Shown here in pieces: positions 1,875-7,931 of a stretch of DNA of 27,398 nucleotides. The notes under the pieces are model-generated. The model ran no database searches. It had not been told where the DNA came from and saw only the letters and a list, made by a program, of their open reading frames with translations. Position 1 is the first letter of the stretch, and the number at the start of each line of letters is the position of its first letter. The stretch lies in NCBI GenBank assembly GCA_049322915.1, contig JBMOPW010000006.1, positions 1 through 27,398 on the forward strand, in the 5' to 3' direction. Both the position numbers and the translations under genes were made by a program. Source of the DNA: Candidatus Zhuqueibacterota bacterium (GTDB lineage: Bacteria; Zhuqueibacterota; Zhuqueibacteria; Thermofontimicrobiales; Thermofontimicrobiaceae).

Positions 1875-2927
1875 TCATGAAAGTAGCCCCCGGGCTTTCA
1901 GCAATTCGGCATTGAGTACCGCCGCGCCAGCAGCGCCGCGAATTGTGTTATGGCCAAGCACAACGCATTTGATATCGAAAATCGGGCAGGGACGAATTCG
2001 GCCAACGACCACAGCCATGCCATTTTCCCGGGTGCGGTCCAACCGGGGCTGCGGTCTGTTCGGCTCGCGCCGGACAATGATGGGTCGAACAGGCGCAGTC
2101 GGCAGACCGAGTTGCTGCGGCAAAGCCGTGAATTGCTCCAGCTCTCCGGCGACTTCCCCGGGAGTTGCCGGTTGATTCAATTTCAGCGCCACCGTCATCA
2201 GATGGCCGTCGCTGACAGCGACGCGGTTGACCTGTGCGCTGATGCGAATGTCCGCAAAGGAGATGCCGCTGGCTGTCGCGGCGCCCAAAATTTTTCGCGT
2301 CTCCGATTCAATTTTTTCCTCCTCCCCGGCGATGAACGGGATGACATTGTCGAGGATATCCAGCGCGGCATGACCGGGATAGCCCGCGCCGGAAATCGCC
2401 TGCATGGTCGTGACAAACATGCTCTCGACGCCCCACTTTCTGTGAATCGGCGCGGCAATCATGGCCAGTGGTATCGCCACGCAGTTGGGATTGGTCACAA
2501 TGAATCCGCCGGCTGATTGGCGTCGGGACTTTTGCATCGGGATCACCTGCGTATGGTCGGGATTCACTTCCGGGATGAGCAGCGGCACGTCCGACTCCAT
2601 GCGGTGATTGCGCGCGTTACTGACCACGATGTGCCCGTTGTTCGCGAATGCATCCTCAATTTCAAGCGCCACGGCAGAACTCAATCCGGAAAAGAGGACG
2701 CGGCAGGCCATGTCCGGCGCTGCCGGGACAACCATCATGTCGCGCACCGATTCAGGCATGTCCGAGTCCAGTCGCCAGAAACACGCATCGCGATATTTTT
2801 TGCCAGCCGATTTGGGGGAGGCTGCCAGCGTCGTCAGGCGGAACCAGGGATGATGCGCCAGCAGTTGCACCAGTCGCTGTCCGACCAGACCAGTGGCGCC
2901 AAGAATGCCAACATCAATTTTTTCCAT
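1875..2927 (-). CDS. asd: Aspartate-semialdehyde dehydrogenase (archaeal/fungal-like subtype)
   Basis: Rossmann motif ILGATGLVGQ, VPLLIPEVN, catalytic TNPNC, QAISGAGYPG, RVAVSDGH and HNTIRGAAG. Start chosen at MEKID (2927); 2933 and 2945 are alternatives. Overlaps the lysC stop. Confidence 0.95.
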   Translation of the reverse strand: MEKIDVGILGATGLVGQRLVQLLAHHPWFRLTTLAASPKSAGKKYRDACFWRLDSDMPESVRDMMVVPAAPDMACRVLFSGLSSAVALEIEDAFANNGHIVVSNARNHRMESDVPLLIPEVNPDHTQVIPMQKSRRQSAGGFIVTNPNCVAIPLAMIAAPIHRKWGVESMFVTTMQAISGAGYPGHAALDILDNVIPFIAGEEEKIESETRKILGAATASGISFADIRISAQVNRVAVSDGHLMTVALKLNQPATPGEVAGELEQFTALPQQLGLPTAPVRPIIVRREPNRPQPRLDRTRENGMAVVVGRIRPCPIFDIKCVVLGHNTIRGAAGAAVLNAELLKARGLLS

Positions 2928-3429
2928 TGCCATTTCCCAATACATTTCTCTTCAGGGTGTGCAGTTCAAACTTTTGATGCAGTTGCAGAACCGCCTCATC
3001 AATCCGGTCGGCCGGGACGATTCCGGTTATTTTTATTTCAGACGTGCTGGTCATCAGGACTTCAATGTTGCTGTTGGCCAGCGTTTCGAACATCTCGTAA
3101 GCGACGCCGTAATGAGTGGCGATGCCGGAACCGACAATCGAAACCTGGGCCAGGTGGCTGCGGATGAGATAGCCCTCGCATCTGTTCGCCGCACGAAAGT
3201 CGGTCAAGATGGCCTCAATTTTTGCAACGTCCTCCGGATGAACGACCAGCGACAAATTCGTCCGATCCACGCCGGCCTTGTTGGAGCAGAGGAGGATAAT
3301 ATTAATTCTCTGCGAGGTGAATTGTCCCAAAATATCGGCCGTGTCGTGGGAATTGATTTGGATACCCTGAATTTCGATCAGGGTCACAGGGGTGTTGGCA
3401 GCAATGCCGGTGATTGTCACATTTTCCAA
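2914..3429 (-). CDS. Putative nested in-frame aspartokinase beta (regulatory) subunit, 171 aa, TTG start
   Basis: Codon 245 of lysC is TTG, preceded by GGAG 6 nt upstream, and opens (M)ENVTITGIA. This is the position where alpha2beta2 aspartokinases (Bacillus AKII, Corynebacterium) start their beta subunit. Confidence 0.55.
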   Translation of the reverse strand: MENVTITGIAANTPVTLIEIQGIQINSHDTADILGQFTSQRINIILLCSNKAGVDRTNLSLVVHPEDVAKIEAILTDFRAANRCEGYLIRSHLAQVSIVGSGIATHYGVAYEMFETLANSNIEVLMTSTSEIKITGIVPADRIDEAVLQLHQKFELHTLKRNVLGNGNGKN

Positions 3430-4161
3430 TTCCTGCTCCGTGGTTATAATTGTTCCCGGGGTTGGATTAAAGCTGGAGCGCACCCGAATTCGAAGGTTGC
3501 TTTTCCGGGCAATTTCCACGGCGCGCCCCATCATGACCTGAGCGCCGGAGGCGGCCAGCTCTAACATTTCTTCATAGGAAATTCCTTGCAGCAGAGAGGC
3601 GTTGCGCACCAATCCAGGGTCTGCCGTGTAAATGCCGTCCACATCGGTGAAAATATCGCAGAAGCGGGCGCCCAGCGCACTTGCCAGCGCTACAGCCGAT
3701 GCATCGGAGCCGCCGCGACCCAGCACGGTAATCTCGTCCGCCATGCGACCCTGAAAACCGGCCACGACGACAATCTCGCCCTGGCGCAACAGCCGCTTGA
3801 TGCGCGTCGTGTCAATATCGGTGATTCGCGCGTTCGCATAGCTTTCATCCGTGGAAATACCGCCCTGGGCTCCGGTGAGAGCCGTCGATTTAGCGCCCAA
3901 CGACTGAATCGCCAGGGCCAGCAGCGCCGTGGAGATGATCTCCCCGGTCGATAGCAGCATGCCCAATTCCCGCTGACGCGGCTGCGCCGTCACCTGTTTC
4001 ACCAATTGCAGCAGATCATCCGTGGTCGTGCCCATGGCTGAAACAACAACCACCACGGCGTATCCCTTCTGCTGGAAAGCCACGCTTCGTTCGGCGATAG
4101 CCTGAATTCGGGCAACCGATCCGACCGATGTTCCGCCGTATTTTTGAACCAGAATTTTCAT
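2914..4161 (-). CDS. lysC: Aspartate kinase (about 415 aa, two C-terminal ACT domains)
   Basis: VQKYGGTSV, VVVSAMG.TTD, VAGFQG, LGRGGSD, IFTDVDGIYTADP and ACT motifs (VSIVGSG, STSEIKI). ATGA overlap with the metX stop. Confidence 0.96.
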   Translation of the reverse strand: MKILVQKYGGTSVGSVARIQAIAERSVAFQQKGYAVVVVVSAMGTTTDDLLQLVKQVTAQPRQRELGMLLSTGEIISTALLALAIQSLGAKSTALTGAQGGISTDESYANARITDIDTTRIKRLLRQGEIVVVAGFQGRMADEITVLGRGGSDASAVALASALGARFCDIFTDVDGIYTADPGLVRNASLLQGISYEEMLELAASGAQVMMGRAVEIARKSNLRIRVRSSFNPTPGTIITTEQELENVTITGIAANTPVTLIEIQGIQINSHDTADILGQFTSQRINIILLCSNKAGVDRTNLSLVVHPEDVAKIEAILTDFRAANRCEGYLIRSHLAQVSIVGSGIATHYGVAYEMFETLANSNIEVLMTSTSEIKITGIVPADRIDEAVLQLHQKFELHTLKRNVLGNGNGKN

Positions 4162-5288
4162 GCGTCCATTTTCTCCGGAGTTTTTGCAGACCAGACCTCG
4201 CGCAGAAACTCGCCCACCAGGGTGCTGACCTGTTCTTTCTCCACTAAAAAGGCGTCGTGCCCATACAGCGATTCCACTTCTTCATAATAAATATCCGGAT
4301 TGGCGTAACGCAAAATTCGCACTATCTCTTTCTGCTGATGAACCGGAAACAGCAAGTCGGAGTCGATGCCGATGATGAGCAGCTTGGACCGGATGCGGCG
4401 CACGCCCTCTTCGTACGATTTGAAGCCAAAACCCAAATCGTGGAAGTCCATTGCTTTGGACAGGTACAGATAGGTATTGGCGTCGAACCATCGGGCCAGT
4501 TTTTGTCCCTGATGTTCGAGATAATCCTCCACTTCGAAGCGCCCATTGATGTCATAAAACTGCTCATCGCAAACACTACGACCGAATCGAACGGCGAATT
4601 CTCTCTCCGACCGATAGGTGATGTGGCCGATCATGCGCGCCAGTTCCAGGCCGCGTTGAGGAATGGAGACGCCGTAGTAATTGCCGCTGCGCCAGTCAGG
4701 ATCCAGCATGATGGCCTTGCGCTGCGCCTTGCGAAATGCGATGGACTGCGGATAGGCGCGTCCCGGCGATGCAATGGGAATAATGGATTCAACCTGGTCC
4801 GGGAACATGGCCGCCCATTCCAGCGCCTGCATGCCGCCCATGGACCCGCCCACTATCGTCAACAGCTTGTTCACCCCCAGCATGTCGATGAGCCGCTTTT
4901 CCGCGCGAACCATGTCCCTGATGGTTACTGCCGGAAATGTCAGTCCGAATGGCCTGCCGGTGGTCTCGTCGATGGACGACGGGCCGCTGGACCCGGAGCA
5001 TCCGCCAAGCACATTGGGGCAGATGACGTAGAACTGGTTCGTGTCCACGGCCTTGCCCGGCCCGATGAGCGATTCCCACCAGCCAGGTTCGCCGCCGTCG
5101 TCGTTACTGGTGCAATGGCTGGTGCCGGTGAGCGCGTGAGCGATGAGAATCGCATTATCCCCAGCGCTGTTCAGCCGGCCCCATGCCTCGTAGCGGATGG
5201 TCGCTGCCGGCAAAACCTGTCCGTTCTCGAACGCGACGGATTCGAACCGGACATCTTTCAATTCATGGGGACTTTGTATCGATTTCAA
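4158..5288 (-). CDS. metX: Homoserine O-acyl(acetyl)transferase, MetX family
   Basis: NAILIAHALTG, GWWESLIGPGKAVDT, nucleophile elbow GGSMGGMQ, catalytic Asp (DSDLLFP) and His (GHDAFL). GGAGG RBS 4 nt before the TTG start. Confidence 0.93.
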   Translation of the reverse strand: MKSIQSPHELKDVRFESVAFENGQVLPAATIRYEAWGRLNSAGDNAILIAHALTGTSHCTSNDDGGEPGWWESLIGPGKAVDTNQFYVICPNVLGGCSGSSGPSSIDETTGRPFGLTFPAVTIRDMVRAEKRLIDMLGVNKLLTIVGGSMGGMQALEWAAMFPDQVESIIPIASPGRAYPQSIAFRKAQRKAIMLDPDWRSGNYYGVSIPQRGLELARMIGHITYRSEREFAVRFGRSVCDEQFYDINGRFEVEDYLEHQGQKLARWFDANTYLYLSKAMDFHDLGFGFKSYEEGVRRIRSKLLIIGIDSDLLFPVHQQKEIVRILRYANPDIYYEEVESLYGHDAFLVEKEQVSTLVGEFLREVWSAKTPEKMDA

Positions 5289-5305
5289 GCTTCCTCCGAT
5301 GCTTC

Positions 5306-5337
5306 AAAAAAAAACCTTCTCTTTGAAGGAGAAGGTT
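5306..5337 (-). terminator. Intrinsic terminator of the SAM riboswitch expression platform
   Basis: Stem AACCTTCTC / GAGAAGGTT with a 7-nt loop and a T9 run, lying between the aptamer and the metX RBS. Confidence 0.9.
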
Positions 5338-5351
5338 CAAATACAACGTAA

Positions 5352-5458
5352 GTTTATCTCCCAAAGATATTTCTTTGTAGGAATTAGCACCTTGCATCAC
5401 GATGACTGCAGGTTGCTAAGGCGTCAGCGGGCCCGTCCCTCAGCCTTTCTGGATAAAC
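5352..5458 (-). promoter_or_regulatory. SAM-I (S-box) riboswitch aptamer
   Basis: Minus strand reads GTTTATCCAGAAAGGCTGAGGGACGGGCCCGCTGACGCCTTAGCAACC...AAGGTGCTAATTCC...GGAGATAAAC. P1 is GTTTATC/GATAAAC, and the GAGGGA kink-turn, GCAACC and GGTGCTAA hallmarks are present. It sits upstream of a Met biosynthesis gene. Confidence 0.96.
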
Positions 5459-5489
5459 AAAAATCCCTTCTCTGCAACAACGAGAAGGG
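5455..5489 (-). terminator. Attenuator-like intrinsic terminator between the leader peptide and the riboswitch
   Basis: Stem CCCTTCTC / GAGAAGGG (8 bp, 9-nt loop) followed by ATTTTTGTTT, whose last bases are the 5' strand of riboswitch P1. Confidence 0.75.
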
Positions 5490-5541
5490 TTCATAGTCAA
5501 TTTTTATGAACTTGATTTGGCAGAGATTAGCCGCAGCGCGG

Positions 5542-5607
5542 TCATGTCATCATGCGCATGCCCATAGGCAATAACAGAAAAATTTCTCCGGCCAAACGAT
5601 ACCTCAT
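5542..5607 (-). CDS. Putative Met-rich leader peptide MRYRLAGEIFLLLPMGMRMMT (21 aa)
   Basis: Translated by hand. SD-like AAGGTGA lies just before the ATG, and 4 of the last 7 codons are ATG. It sits between a good promoter and a terminator hairpin upstream of the metX operon. Confidence 0.7.
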   Translation of the reverse strand: MRYRLAGEIFLLLPMGMRMMT

Positions 5608-5634
5608 GGATTCACCTTAAATTTTTGTTGGTTC

Positions 5635-5662
5635 AATATAGCAATTTTTTCGAAAAATGCAA
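5635..5662 (-). promoter_or_regulatory. Putative sigma-70 promoter of the met leader and the metX-lysC-asd operon
   Basis: TTGCAT-16 nt-TATATT with an extended -10 TGn, 27 nt upstream of the leader-peptide ATG. Confidence 0.6.
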
Positions 5663-5819
5663 GCGATATTTCTCAGGACAAAGTATCACTGGTGCGGAGT
5701 CGGCGAGGATTACTGTGTCCACATCGGACAGGCCAGCGATTCAGTGTTCATTTTAGATAAGCACAGCAGTTCATGCCGATGGAGCGGCGCGCCGCCGTTC
5801 CGCCGATTCTGCAACAGGA

Positions 5820-7073
5820 TCAGCTATCGCTGTCCCGGTCGGATTTTTTTACAATTATTTTCACGGCGATCACCCGTTTTTCGTCCGCGCGTTCCACGAT
5901 GATTTTGCAATTCTCCAGCTCAATGCCCTCTTTGGGTTCGGGGATGGTTCCCATAGTTTCAATGACAAAACCACCGATCGAGGTATAATCCCCTTCCGGG
6001 ATGTGCAGGTCGAACTTATCGTTGATCTCATCGATCTCCGCCCGTGCATCCAGGATGATCGTAGTTGGATTGACTTTAAAATACATGTGCTTGTGGTCGA
6101 TGTCGAATTCATCATAGATTTCTCCGAACAATTCCTCAATCACATCTTCGAGGGTTACCAGGCCGGCTGTGCCGCCGTACTCATCCAGCACAATGGCGAT
6201 GCTGGTCTTCGTCCTTCGGAATTCCTGGAGCATTTCATAAGCGGATTTTGTCTCAGGCACGAACCGGATTTCCTGCATGATCTCCTCCATATTCTGGGGA
6301 AATCGGAACAGGTCCTTTGCATAGACAACCCCGATGATCGAATCGATATTTCCATCGCACACCGGCAGTCTCGAAAAACCCGACTGACAGAACGTCTTTC
6401 GCAATTTTGCGATGGATAAGGATTTATCCACAGCCATCATTTCAGTGCGGGGCACCATGGTTTCTTTGAGCCGGGTCTGGTTCAACTCAAAAATCCTGGC
6501 GATGATCTCATGCTCCATTGTCTCGATAATCCCGTGAATCTCGCTCTCCTGCATGAAGCGTTTGACGTCTGTGCGGGTGAGAATGTCTTCGACCTTTTGC
6601 TCTTTGGACGCGTGAAAAAGTTTTAACAGGAAATTCGATAGCGAAATGAAAAAGAAACCAACAGGGTAGAACAGATAATAAAACACCCGCAGAACATAGG
6701 AGTTTCGAATGATCAGTTGGTCCGCGGATTCCCGCGCAATCACCTTGGGGATGATTTCGCCCAGAATCAGCACGGTCAGAGAGGAAATGAGAATGATCAA
6801 TGATTCTTCAAAGGAGTCGCGCAAGAACAGAACAATGAAACTCGAAAACAGGACGTTAGCTAAATTGTTACCGATCAGCGTTGTAACGAACAACTTTTCC
6901 GAGCTTTTAATGAATTCAAAAACCTGTTTTGTGCCTTTTACTTTTCTCCGATGAAGGACCTCAATGCGAATTTTGTTGGCGGATAAAAATACCGTCTCGG
7001 AGCCGGAGAAAAACGCGCTCAGAATCAGCGCGATGACCATCAGTATCAATTCCACAGTCAGACCCGAATTCAA
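5820..7073 (-). CDS. HlyC/CorC (CNNM-CBS-CorC) family membrane protein, putative Mg2+/metal transporter
   Basis: LSAFFSGSET, TTLIGNNLAN, GEIIPK, MVPRTEM, FSRLPV, AIVLDEYGGTAGLVTLEDVIEELFGEI and a C-terminal CorC domain. TTG start overlaps the yigZ stop. Confidence 0.93.
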   Translation of the reverse strand: MNSGLTVELILMVIALILSAFFSGSETVFLSANKIRIEVLHRRKVKGTKQVFEFIKSSEKLFVTTLIGNNLANVLFSSFIVLFLRDSFEESLIILISSLTVLILGEIIPKVIARESADQLIIRNSYVLRVFYYLFYPVGFFFISLSNFLLKLFHASKEQKVEDILTRTDVKRFMQESEIHGIIETMEHEIIARIFELNQTRLKETMVPRTEMMAVDKSLSIAKLRKTFCQSGFSRLPVCDGNIDSIIGVVYAKDLFRFPQNMEEIMQEIRFVPETKSAYEMLQEFRRTKTSIAIVLDEYGGTAGLVTLEDVIEELFGEIYDEFDIDHKHMYFKVNPTTIILDARAEIDEINDKFDLHIPEGDYTSIGGFVIETMGTIPEPKEGIELENCKIIVERADEKRVIAVKIIVKKSDRDSDS

Positions 7074-7755: not shown

Positions 7756-7830
7756 CGGGGTCGACGGGGCTCGAACCCGCGACCTTCGGCTTGACAGGCC
7801 GATGTGCTAACCAAACTGCACCACGACCCC
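7756..7830 (-). tRNA. tRNA-Asp(GTC)
   Basis: GGGGTCGTGGTGCAGTTTGGTTAGCACATCGGCCTGTCAAGCCGAAGGTCGCGGGTTCGAGCCCCGTCGACCCCG folds as a cloverleaf with anticodon GTC and T-loop GTTCGA. CCA is not encoded. Confidence 0.97.
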
Positions 7831-7856: not shown

Positions 7857-7931
7857 TGGGCGATACTGGACTTGAACCAGTGACCTCCTGCTTGTAAGGC
7901 AGGCGCTCTAAACCACCTGAGCTAATCGCCC
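7857..7931 (-). tRNA. tRNA-Val(TAC)
   Basis: GGGCGATTAGCTCAGGTGGTTTAGAGCGCCTGCCTTACAAGCAGGAGGTCACTGGTTCAAGTCCAGTATCGCCCA folds as a cloverleaf with anticodon TAC. CCA is not encoded. Confidence 0.97.

Follow-up and report, generated by a model that had tools for sequence, protein, structure and literature searches.

A candidate methionine-codon leader-peptide attenuator in series with a SAM-I riboswitch ahead of metX-lysC-asd in Candidatus Zhuqueibacterota

Introduction

Textbook control of methionine (Met) biosynthesis relies on S-adenosylmethionine (SAM) riboswitches, T-boxes and protein repressors, the standard examples of leader-peptide attenuation being Trp, His, Leu, Thr, Phe and Ile/Val. 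What, then, is the role of a short open reading frame (ORF) with clustered Met codons that is followed by a terminator and, directly after it, by a SAM-I riboswitch? The question is raised by the metX-lysC-asd operon of a Candidatus Zhuqueibacterota bacterium, encoded on the minus strand of the 27,398-nucleotide (nt) stretch analysed here (contig JBMOPW010000006.1 of assembly GCA_049322915.1, positions 1 to 27,398), hereafter called the window. The genome of this window is designated G000, and its assembly comprises 6.25 Mb at 96% completeness. An original prediction, made from the letters of the window, described the segment in front of the aptamer as a hidden attenuator that reads Met codons in tandem with the riboswitch. 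Comparison with relatives supports this view, and with a probability of roughly 0.7 that segment is a trp-type ribosome-mediated attenuator reading Met codons, which together with the SAM-I riboswitch forms a serial pair on the one leader of metX-lysC-asd. Expression of these genes probably requires that charged Met-transfer RNA (tRNA) and SAM are both scarce.

Organization of the leader

The promoter, the ribosome-binding site, the 21-codon ORF, the 8-base-pair (bp) terminator, the SAM-I aptamer, the second terminator and the metX-lysC-asd genes all lie where the original prediction had placed them, and all are on the minus strand. The promoter (5635-5662) consists of a -35 element TTGCAT (5662-5657), a 16-nt spacer ending in TGc, with TG at 5643-5642, and a -10 element TATATT (5640-5635). 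The Shine-Dalgarno (SD) sequence AAGGTGA (5612-5618) stands 4 nt 5' of the ATG at 5607, with which the leader ORF begins (5542-5607; 21 codons and a stop, encoding MRYRLAGEIFLLLPMGMRMMT). Its Met codons at 5565, 5559, 5553 and 5550 belong to a cluster reading P-M-G-M-R-M-M (5548-5570), the first part of which may form a small hairpin, UGCC-UAUG-GGCA (5570-5559).

Three further segments define the alternative structures. Region 1 (5585-5596; UUUGGC(C)GGAGA) covers codons 4-8 of the ORF and is complementary to region 2 (5516-5526; UCUCUGCCAAA), which can pair either with region 1 or with region 3. Region 3 (5469-5475; GCAGAGA) takes in the end of the terminator loop plus 4 nt at the start of the 3' arm, and would form an antiterminator with region 2. 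The first intrinsic terminator (5455-5489) is an 8-bp G+C-rich hairpin at 5489-5465, composed of CCCUUCUC, a 9-nt loop and GAGAAGGG, and followed by the U tract AUUUUUGUUU; in its short form, the arms are CCCTTCTC and GAGAAGGG and the tail is ATTTTTGTTT. The hairpin has a folding energy of -12.9 kcal/mol in G000, and the whole leader folds at -50 kcal/mol, with a z score of -2.33 relative to 200 shuffles.

The SAM-I aptamer (5351-5459) matches RF00162 over its full length (1-108) with 88.3 bits (E = 5.5e-20), against a gathering score of 44.4 bits. Because the aptamer starts at 5459, the U tract of the first terminator enters helix P1 of the riboswitch. The expression platform is a second intrinsic terminator (5303-5338) with a 10-pair stem (5338-5312) and a T run. 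The operon, spanning 1875-5288 with overlapping reading frames, comprises metX (5288-4158; NCBIfam NF001209 MetX, 470 bits), lysC (4161-2914; NF005155 aspartate kinase, 439 bits) and asd (2945-1875; NF006416 Asd, 465 bits), all above their cut-offs.

A simple consensus scan misses the promoter, the -35 element of which matches at 3 of 6 positions, and a simple scan also misses the first terminator because its 9-nt loop exceeds the limit of 8. The consensus scan found no other promoter-like site on the minus strand between 5750 and 5200, and the interval between the first terminator and the aptamer holds no promoter-like site and no room for one. The riboswitch can therefore be reached only by read-through. 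In this tandem, two complete predicted units, each a sensor with its terminator, follow one another on a single transcript and are not separated by a promoter. At E <= 10, the interval 5460-5662 gave no match to any Rfam family, including the T-box, and a T-box reading of the locus was dropped, as the T-box covariance model gave no match within 5250-5850 at the same threshold.

As a separate observation, the arms of the leader terminator (CCCUUCUC...GAGAAGGG, 5489-5465) and of the riboswitch terminator (ACCUUCUC...GAGAAGGU, 5338-5312) are near-identical, so the first 3' arm could pair with the second 5' arm across the aptamer. The likeness recurs in the related genomes G018 and G002 and is not seen in G005 or L044.

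Conservation of the leader among relatives

Within the order, 6 of 21 genomes carry a SAM-I match, one each, and in all six the aptamer is preceded by a promoter, an SD sequence, a short ORF and a terminator. A metX orthologue lies downstream in five of them (E from 8e-81 to 9e-261); the contig of G002 stops 91 codons into a MetX-like frame. The divergent MetX paralogues of G015, G017 and G019 (43-45% identity) have neither the leader nor the riboswitch. A metagenome collection was scanned with a pattern of 28 specified bases taken from the aptamer only, and all six contigs retrieved contained the leader ORF and the terminator, one of them duplicating G005. Together, the genomes (G000, G001, G002, G005, G018 and G020) and the metagenome contigs (L043, L044, L045, L046 and L047) provide 11 distinct leaders, on which the counts below are based. 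The promoter is kept at the same place in all 11 (TTGACT or TTGCAT, 16 nt, TATATT), as is a terminator with a U tract, located 0-10 nt 5' of the aptamer. The locus in L047 has no metX-like frame within about 330 nt 3' of the second terminator, unlike the other loci.

Searches that started from the leader rather than the aptamer were also made. A 14-nt motif matched 18 times in 167 genomes of the phylum, compared with 3 matches for the reversed control. Five of the 18 are short leader ORFs, all of them before SAM-I, and the remaining 13 are within or next to long coding frames; no stand-alone leader lacking SAM-I was present among these matches. A peptide-motif scan of the genome collection returned 11 matches, including three true leaders (G005, G018 and G020). 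Seven were rejected as chance co-occurrences with unrelated SAM-I leaders, having no intervening terminator, and one (L020) was rejected for lying within a long ORF.

The leader open reading frame and its Met codons

In all 11 leaders, the upstream region contains a short ORF with clustered Met codons in frame. Each ORF retains a start codon (ATG or GTG), carries the Met block in frame and stays open for 21-27 codons, although spacer lengths differ. A purine-rich SD sequence of the GGA/GAGG type precedes the start in 9 of 11 and is weak in L043 and G002; for G018 and L043, the SD-led ATG was chosen as the start over an upstream TTG or GTG. In addition to G000, the predicted peptides are MRFYFARTKILLLPMGMPKVT in L045, VRYYFASAVILLLPMGMHHVT in G001, MKIYFAITSAVILRLPMGMRISSYA in L043, MNFTFAKSSLLIIRMPMGMRMDMHKVP in L047, MNFNNAGKSRIVCQMPMGMCMIIPVN in G018, MNLHSAGISKYIKRMPMGMGMHIPVS in G020, MSFARIKYIIIRMPMGMSMPHKAVP in G005, MNFARFTFNLIRMPMGMFMSTKAVP in L044, MNFVRIIFTIIRMPMGMSMPKKAVP in L046 and MMRMFLNMLYHNFLTMKMGSMMLKFT in G002. 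The block x-P-M-G-M is found in 10 of these 11 ORFs, with TMKMGSMM taking its place in G002.

The ATG triplets inside the ORFs are biased in frame: leaving out the start codons, the count is 42 in frame against 3 out of frame. Of the 257 non-initiator residues across the 11 ORFs, 42 are Met, as are 4 of 20 in G000. Apart from the Met block and the "FA / AG" residues, which region 1 encodes, the peptide shows little conservation, and judged by this pattern it does not look like a protein selected for its own fold.

Mutually exclusive helices

The original prediction had pointed out that the segment at 5526-5516 can enter two mutually exclusive pairings. Both exist, with a duplex energy of -14.9 kcal/mol for region 1 (UUUGGC(C)GGAGA) with region 2 (UCUCUGCCAAA) and of -11.5 kcal/mol for UCUCUGC of region 2 with GCAGAGA of region 3 in G000. 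The inner hairpin GUUCAUA/UAUGAAC (5489-5511), which had been described as enclosed by the latter pairing, is present in the window and proved to be specific to the clade of G000, G001 and L045. In all 11 leaders, the unconstrained minimum free energy (MFE) structure combines the terminator with a long-range 1:2 helix, formed by ORF codons ~3-9 and a segment past the stop codon, and the Met cluster lies in the loop of this helix. In 11 of 11, region 2 is likewise complementary to a second segment, made up of the loop of the terminator and the 3-5 nt that begin its 3' arm. The resulting 2:3 duplexes range from -9.4 to -18.0 kcal/mol; compared with 200 shuffles, they reach p <= 0.01 in seven leaders and p = 0.04 to 0.26 in the remaining four.

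Compensatory changes were found in both alternative helices, and some extend over all three regions. At position -1, regions 1, 2 and 3 read A/U/A in G005 and G/C/G in G018 and G020, and at position +1 they read G/C/G in G000 and C/G/C in most others. The 2:3 helix was evaluated on an alignment fitted to that helix by a covariance model, which includes a spurious twelfth row of 24.8 bits; pairing extends to 83.5% of cells, six of nine pairs show changes on both sides, and the covariation score was reached by none of 500 shuffles, with slid controls pairing at 39-50.5%. For the 1:2 helix, a plain MAFFT alignment fitted to no structure was used, in which register shifts count against the helix. 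Pairing reaches 64.6% of cells here, with changes on both sides in 10 of 17 pairs, and the score of the 1:2 helix plus the small hairpin was again reached by 0 of 500 shuffles (slid controls, 30-54%). These shuffle counts are not probabilities, because the sequences share ancestry within a single order. Taken as predicted structures, the three mutually exclusive helices (1:2, 2:3 and the terminator) are conserved with compensatory changes.

Ribosome position and proposed mechanism

The position of region 2 relative to the Met codons would allow a stalled ribosome to leave it accessible. In 11 of 11 leaders, region 2 starts 23-34 nt past the first base of the last Met codon, which is beyond the footprint of a ribosome stalled there. 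In seven leaders, it starts 5-8 nt past the first base of the stop codon, which is inside the footprint of a terminating ribosome. When the RNA 3' of a ribosome with its A site on the last Met codon was folded, the 2:3 helix was the MFE structure in 11 of 11 for as long as only 4-5 nt of the terminator 3' arm had emerged. After the entire arm has emerged, the terminator is about equally or less stable in L043, G005 and L047. The ribosome-dependent switch implied by the original prediction was also followed by equilibrium folding with the ribosome-covered segment masked; a clean switch appeared in G005, L046, L047 and G018, and little or none in G000, L045, G001, L044, G002 and G020. In L043, the terminator was lost in the stalled state and was not regained with the ribosome at the stop codon.

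From these features, we infer that the leader ORF is translated, that ribosomes stall in it and that stalling affects termination. Transcription would start about 25-30 nt 5' of the ORF. On a leader without a ribosome, region 1 would pair with region 2, the first terminator would form, and transcription would stop before the riboswitch. When charged Met-tRNA is scarce, a ribosome would stall on the codons of P-M-G-M-x-M, between regions 1 and 2, and would keep region 1 from region 2. Region 2 would then stay free, because it starts at least 23 nt past the last Met codon, and could capture the loop of the terminator together with the initial 3-5 nt of its 3' arm while the remainder is still to be made, leading to read-through. 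When Met is plentiful, the ribosome would reach the stop codon; in seven of the leaders it would cover region 2, in the others it would leave and the 1:2 helix would re-form, and in both cases the terminator would form. A transcript that has been read through must still pass the SAM-I terminator. With two terminators in series, the operon would therefore be made only when Met-tRNA charging and SAM are both low, corresponding to a NOR gate on Met and SAM.

Counterevidence and alternative explanations

Several observations weigh against this mechanism. A search for sequencing runs returned DNA metagenome runs and none of RNA. Once the whole 3' arm is out, the terminator is more stable than the 2:3 helix in 8 of 11 leaders, by 6.9 kcal/mol in G000, and in masked-ribosome equilibrium folding the terminator probability of G000 stays at 0.93-0.95. 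As equilibrium favours the terminator, antitermination must be kinetic, and kinetic operation is the accepted view of the trp attenuator. In G000, L045, G001 and L043, region 2 starts 13-18 nt past the stop codon, outside the normal footprint. The distance is 18 nt in G000; masking by a ribosome at the stop codon is not supported here, so that re-formation of the 1:2 helix after release has to be assumed. A duplex test across sequences spoke only weakly in favour of covariation (averages of -20.2 and -12.0 kcal/mol for self pairs compared with -17.2 and -9.6 kcal/mol for cross pairs). Only two internal Met codons each are present in G001, L045 and L043, and Met starvation would also lower the charging of initiator tRNA and hence the loading of ribosomes on the leader ORF. 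The sampling is narrow as well, all sequences coming from one order and representing about six independent lineages. Finally, the core of the Met block, CCT ATG GGC ATG, is near-invariant in nucleotides, synonymous sites included, which the counting of Met codons does not explain.

This near-invariance coincides with an RNA structure. The Met block can form AUGCC-UAUG-GGCAU, a hairpin with one Met codon in its loop that has 5 bp in the 6 of 11 leaders with ATG as the codon in front and 4 bp in the four P-M-G-M leaders with another codon there (G000, L045, G001 and L043). On the MAFFT alignment, the 4-bp hairpin is paired in 85.5% of cells and is the sole helix called by RNAalifold, the other helices being out of register in that alignment. 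The conservation of Pro and Gly is therefore at least partly an RNA constraint. Possible roles of the hairpin are to act as a pause signal, to nucleate the OFF fold and to slow the ribosome.

It could be speculated from the same observations that the leader operates as an RNA switch with no need of translation, in which binding of a protein, tRNA or small molecule sets the conserved hairpin and the 1:2/2:3 alternatives and the ORF is a by-product of an AUG-rich motif. The sole synonymous change in the block, GGC to GGT in L044, keeps a G-U pair, and the corresponding place in G002 is taken by another hairpin, CCAU-GAAA-AUGG, both of which fit such a switch. Yet a start codon and an SD sequence (weak in L043 and G002) remain in frame with the motif across differing spacer lengths in every leader, 21-27 codons of AT-rich sequence are free of in-frame stops, and the ATG triplets are biased to the reading frame by 42 to 3. 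The stop codon 5-8 nt 5' of region 2 in seven leaders would also be relevant only with a ribosome present, and the lack of any Rfam match in 5460-5662, T-box included, speaks against the switch as well. An untranslated RNA switch is thus considered unlikely, and the Met-reading attenuator is preferred.

The strength of the first terminator at equilibrium, with a probability of 0.93-1.0 in G000, could also indicate that the ORF and this terminator constitute an independent small gene, a small RNA or an insulator against read-through from the CNNM-type gene upstream, with metX being controlled by SAM-I alone through a constant leak. In other bacteria, both leader peptides and attenuated transcripts can function in trans (PMC6614838 and PMC7298713). 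However, the sole promoter-like element lies upstream of the ORF in all 11 leaders and none fits between terminator and aptamer, so the arrangement is difficult to reconcile with a separate unit. A plain terminator would have no need of a region 2 complementary to both region 1 and region 3 with three-way covariation, and the peptide is poorly conserved outside the Met block. Furthermore, the five short-leader-ORF matches of the motif search in 167 genomes all precede SAM-I, the other 13 being in or beside long coding frames. An independent unit of this kind is accordingly judged improbable. Very improbable is a programmed arrest peptide of the TnaC or SpeFL type, in which P-M-G-M would stall on a small molecule such as free Met or SAM rather than on a lack of Met-tRNA: Pro and Gly are conserved with Met in 10 of 11 leaders, which is more than codon-starvation sensing needs, but the CC/GG pairs of the hairpin explain the Pro and Gly codons, G002 has TMKMGSMM without Pro, ligand-induced stalling would turn a biosynthetic operon on when its product is abundant, which is the wrong sign, and we know of no arrest motif of the P-M-G-M kind.

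Comparison with known regulatory leaders

The proposed Met attenuator shares its general plan with the classical attenuators (trpL, hisL, leuL, thrL, pheL and ilv): a promoter-proximal, SD-led ORF rich in codons for the end product, mutually exclusive 1:2, 2:3 and 3:4 helices and an intrinsic terminator, with the stop codon adjoining region 2 in 7 of the 11 leaders. It differs from them in several ways. The regulatory codon is that of Met, which is also the initiation codon, and the Met codons occupy the loop that separates region 1 from region 2 instead of belonging to region 1. Interleaved with other codons (M-P-M-G-M-x-M), they are embedded in a small hairpin. Moreover, the antiterminator takes the terminator loop and 3' arm instead of the 5' arm, and a riboswitch follows directly 3'.

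Two complete termination switches in series, with both signals having to be low for expression, are also the principle of tandem riboswitches. In Bacillus clausii, for example, metE is controlled by a NOR gate made of SAM-I and adenosylcobalamin riboswitches. Closer in its inputs is the T-box+SAM combination, which responds to tRNA charging and SAM, the inputs also proposed for the leader described here; PMC12452182 reports this combination as well as SAM-SAM tandems. The tRNA-charging sensor of the present leader would be a leader ORF, predicted to be translated, whereas in that combination it is a T-box RNA.

Leader-peptide attenuators have been reported in Actinobacteria and Firmicutes besides Proteobacteria, and an exchange of T-box, riboswitch and leader peptide at one gene has been discussed (PMC2965389), the accessible sections of that source containing nothing on Met leaders. 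Met specificity has hardly been described for such attenuators so far. One case is a "metL" leader predicted upstream of metNIQ in Streptomyces lividans TK24, for which a typical Rho-independent terminator is missing according to the authors (PMC8079986). Like the leader of G000, it is a short ORF with several Met codons before a Met-related operon, and it has been annotated as a Met-dependent leader peptide. It differs in being leaderless, in its mixture of Cys and Met codons (…CMCRRMCAF) and in preceding an importer operon, and as far as the source extends it has no riboswitch and no sequence similarity and belongs to another phylum.

In the mgtCBR (PMC3641672) and mgtA leaders of Salmonella, translation of short regulatory ORFs sets RNA structure together with another sensing element on one leader. 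Those systems involve Pro codons, Mg2+ or ATP sensing, a transporter or virulence operon and interwoven elements, whereas the leader of metX-lysC-asd has two separate terminators and serves Met biosynthesis. The polycysteine attenuators of mycobacteria (bioRxiv 10.1101/834739) share an upstream ORF rich in codons for a sulfur amino acid and the amino-acid response that is proposed here; they differ in using Cys instead of Met, in being leaderless, in the absence of a riboswitch and in belonging to another phylum. The accessible part of PMC9373788, on SAM-II before metA, holds nothing relevant to Met leader peptides. A full-text search, with subscription journals mostly outside its reach, found no paper joining a Met-codon leader peptide to a SAM riboswitch. 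Within the reach of this search, the remark of the original prediction that the combination was not known to be described holds for the combination itself; a predicted Met leader and T-box+SAM tandems are in print in the sources named above.

Tandem sensors in the phylum

SAM-I was matched in 15 of 151 genomes sampled in the phylum. In G121 (locus L040) and G147 (L038), which belong to another family of the same class, two tandem SAM-I riboswitches, each with a terminator, precede metX. In G047 (L034) and G051 (L039), two tandem SAM-I riboswitches, again each with a terminator, precede a threonine-synthase-like gene with an N-terminal Cys-rich motif. One SAM-I each is found in G069, G043 and G041. 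Two predicted terminators in series are a recurring design in this phylum. In the order of the window, the proposed first sensor is a leader ORF and not an aptamer, and one may have replaced the other. A more far-reaching reading would join these points: a working two-input gate of a Met-sensing attenuator and SAM-I may have replaced the first aptamer of an ancestral SAM-I + SAM-I tandem, as kept in G121 and G147, with M-P-M-G-M serving as a dual-purpose hairpin that displays the Met codons and tunes the place and length of the stall. This joint reading is put forward tentatively, as the less probable course when all of its parts are taken together.

Genes surrounding the operon

The gene upstream of the leader (7073-5820) encodes a CNNM/GldE-like protein unrelated to the operon. 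Two tRNA genes on the minus strand (7756-7830 and 7857-7931; Rfam tRNA, 70 and 72 bits) are both located upstream of a YigZ/IMPACT-family gene (7690-7070) and of the CNNM-type gene. Downstream of asd, a gene for a sigma-54-dependent activator of the response-regulator type occupies 251-1708 on the minus strand.

Implications

If the proposed attenuator operates as described, ribosome-based sensing would extend to Met, even though Met is also needed for initiation. The leader would then be a clean natural example of two stacked sensors, one reading tRNA charging through translation and the other a metabolite riboswitch, and would separate the need of "Met for protein synthesis" from that of "SAM for methylation". 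The element is short, about 180 nt. The occurrence of SAM-I + SAM-I at the same gene in sister lineages suggests that the sensors are exchangeable modules on a two-terminator chassis.

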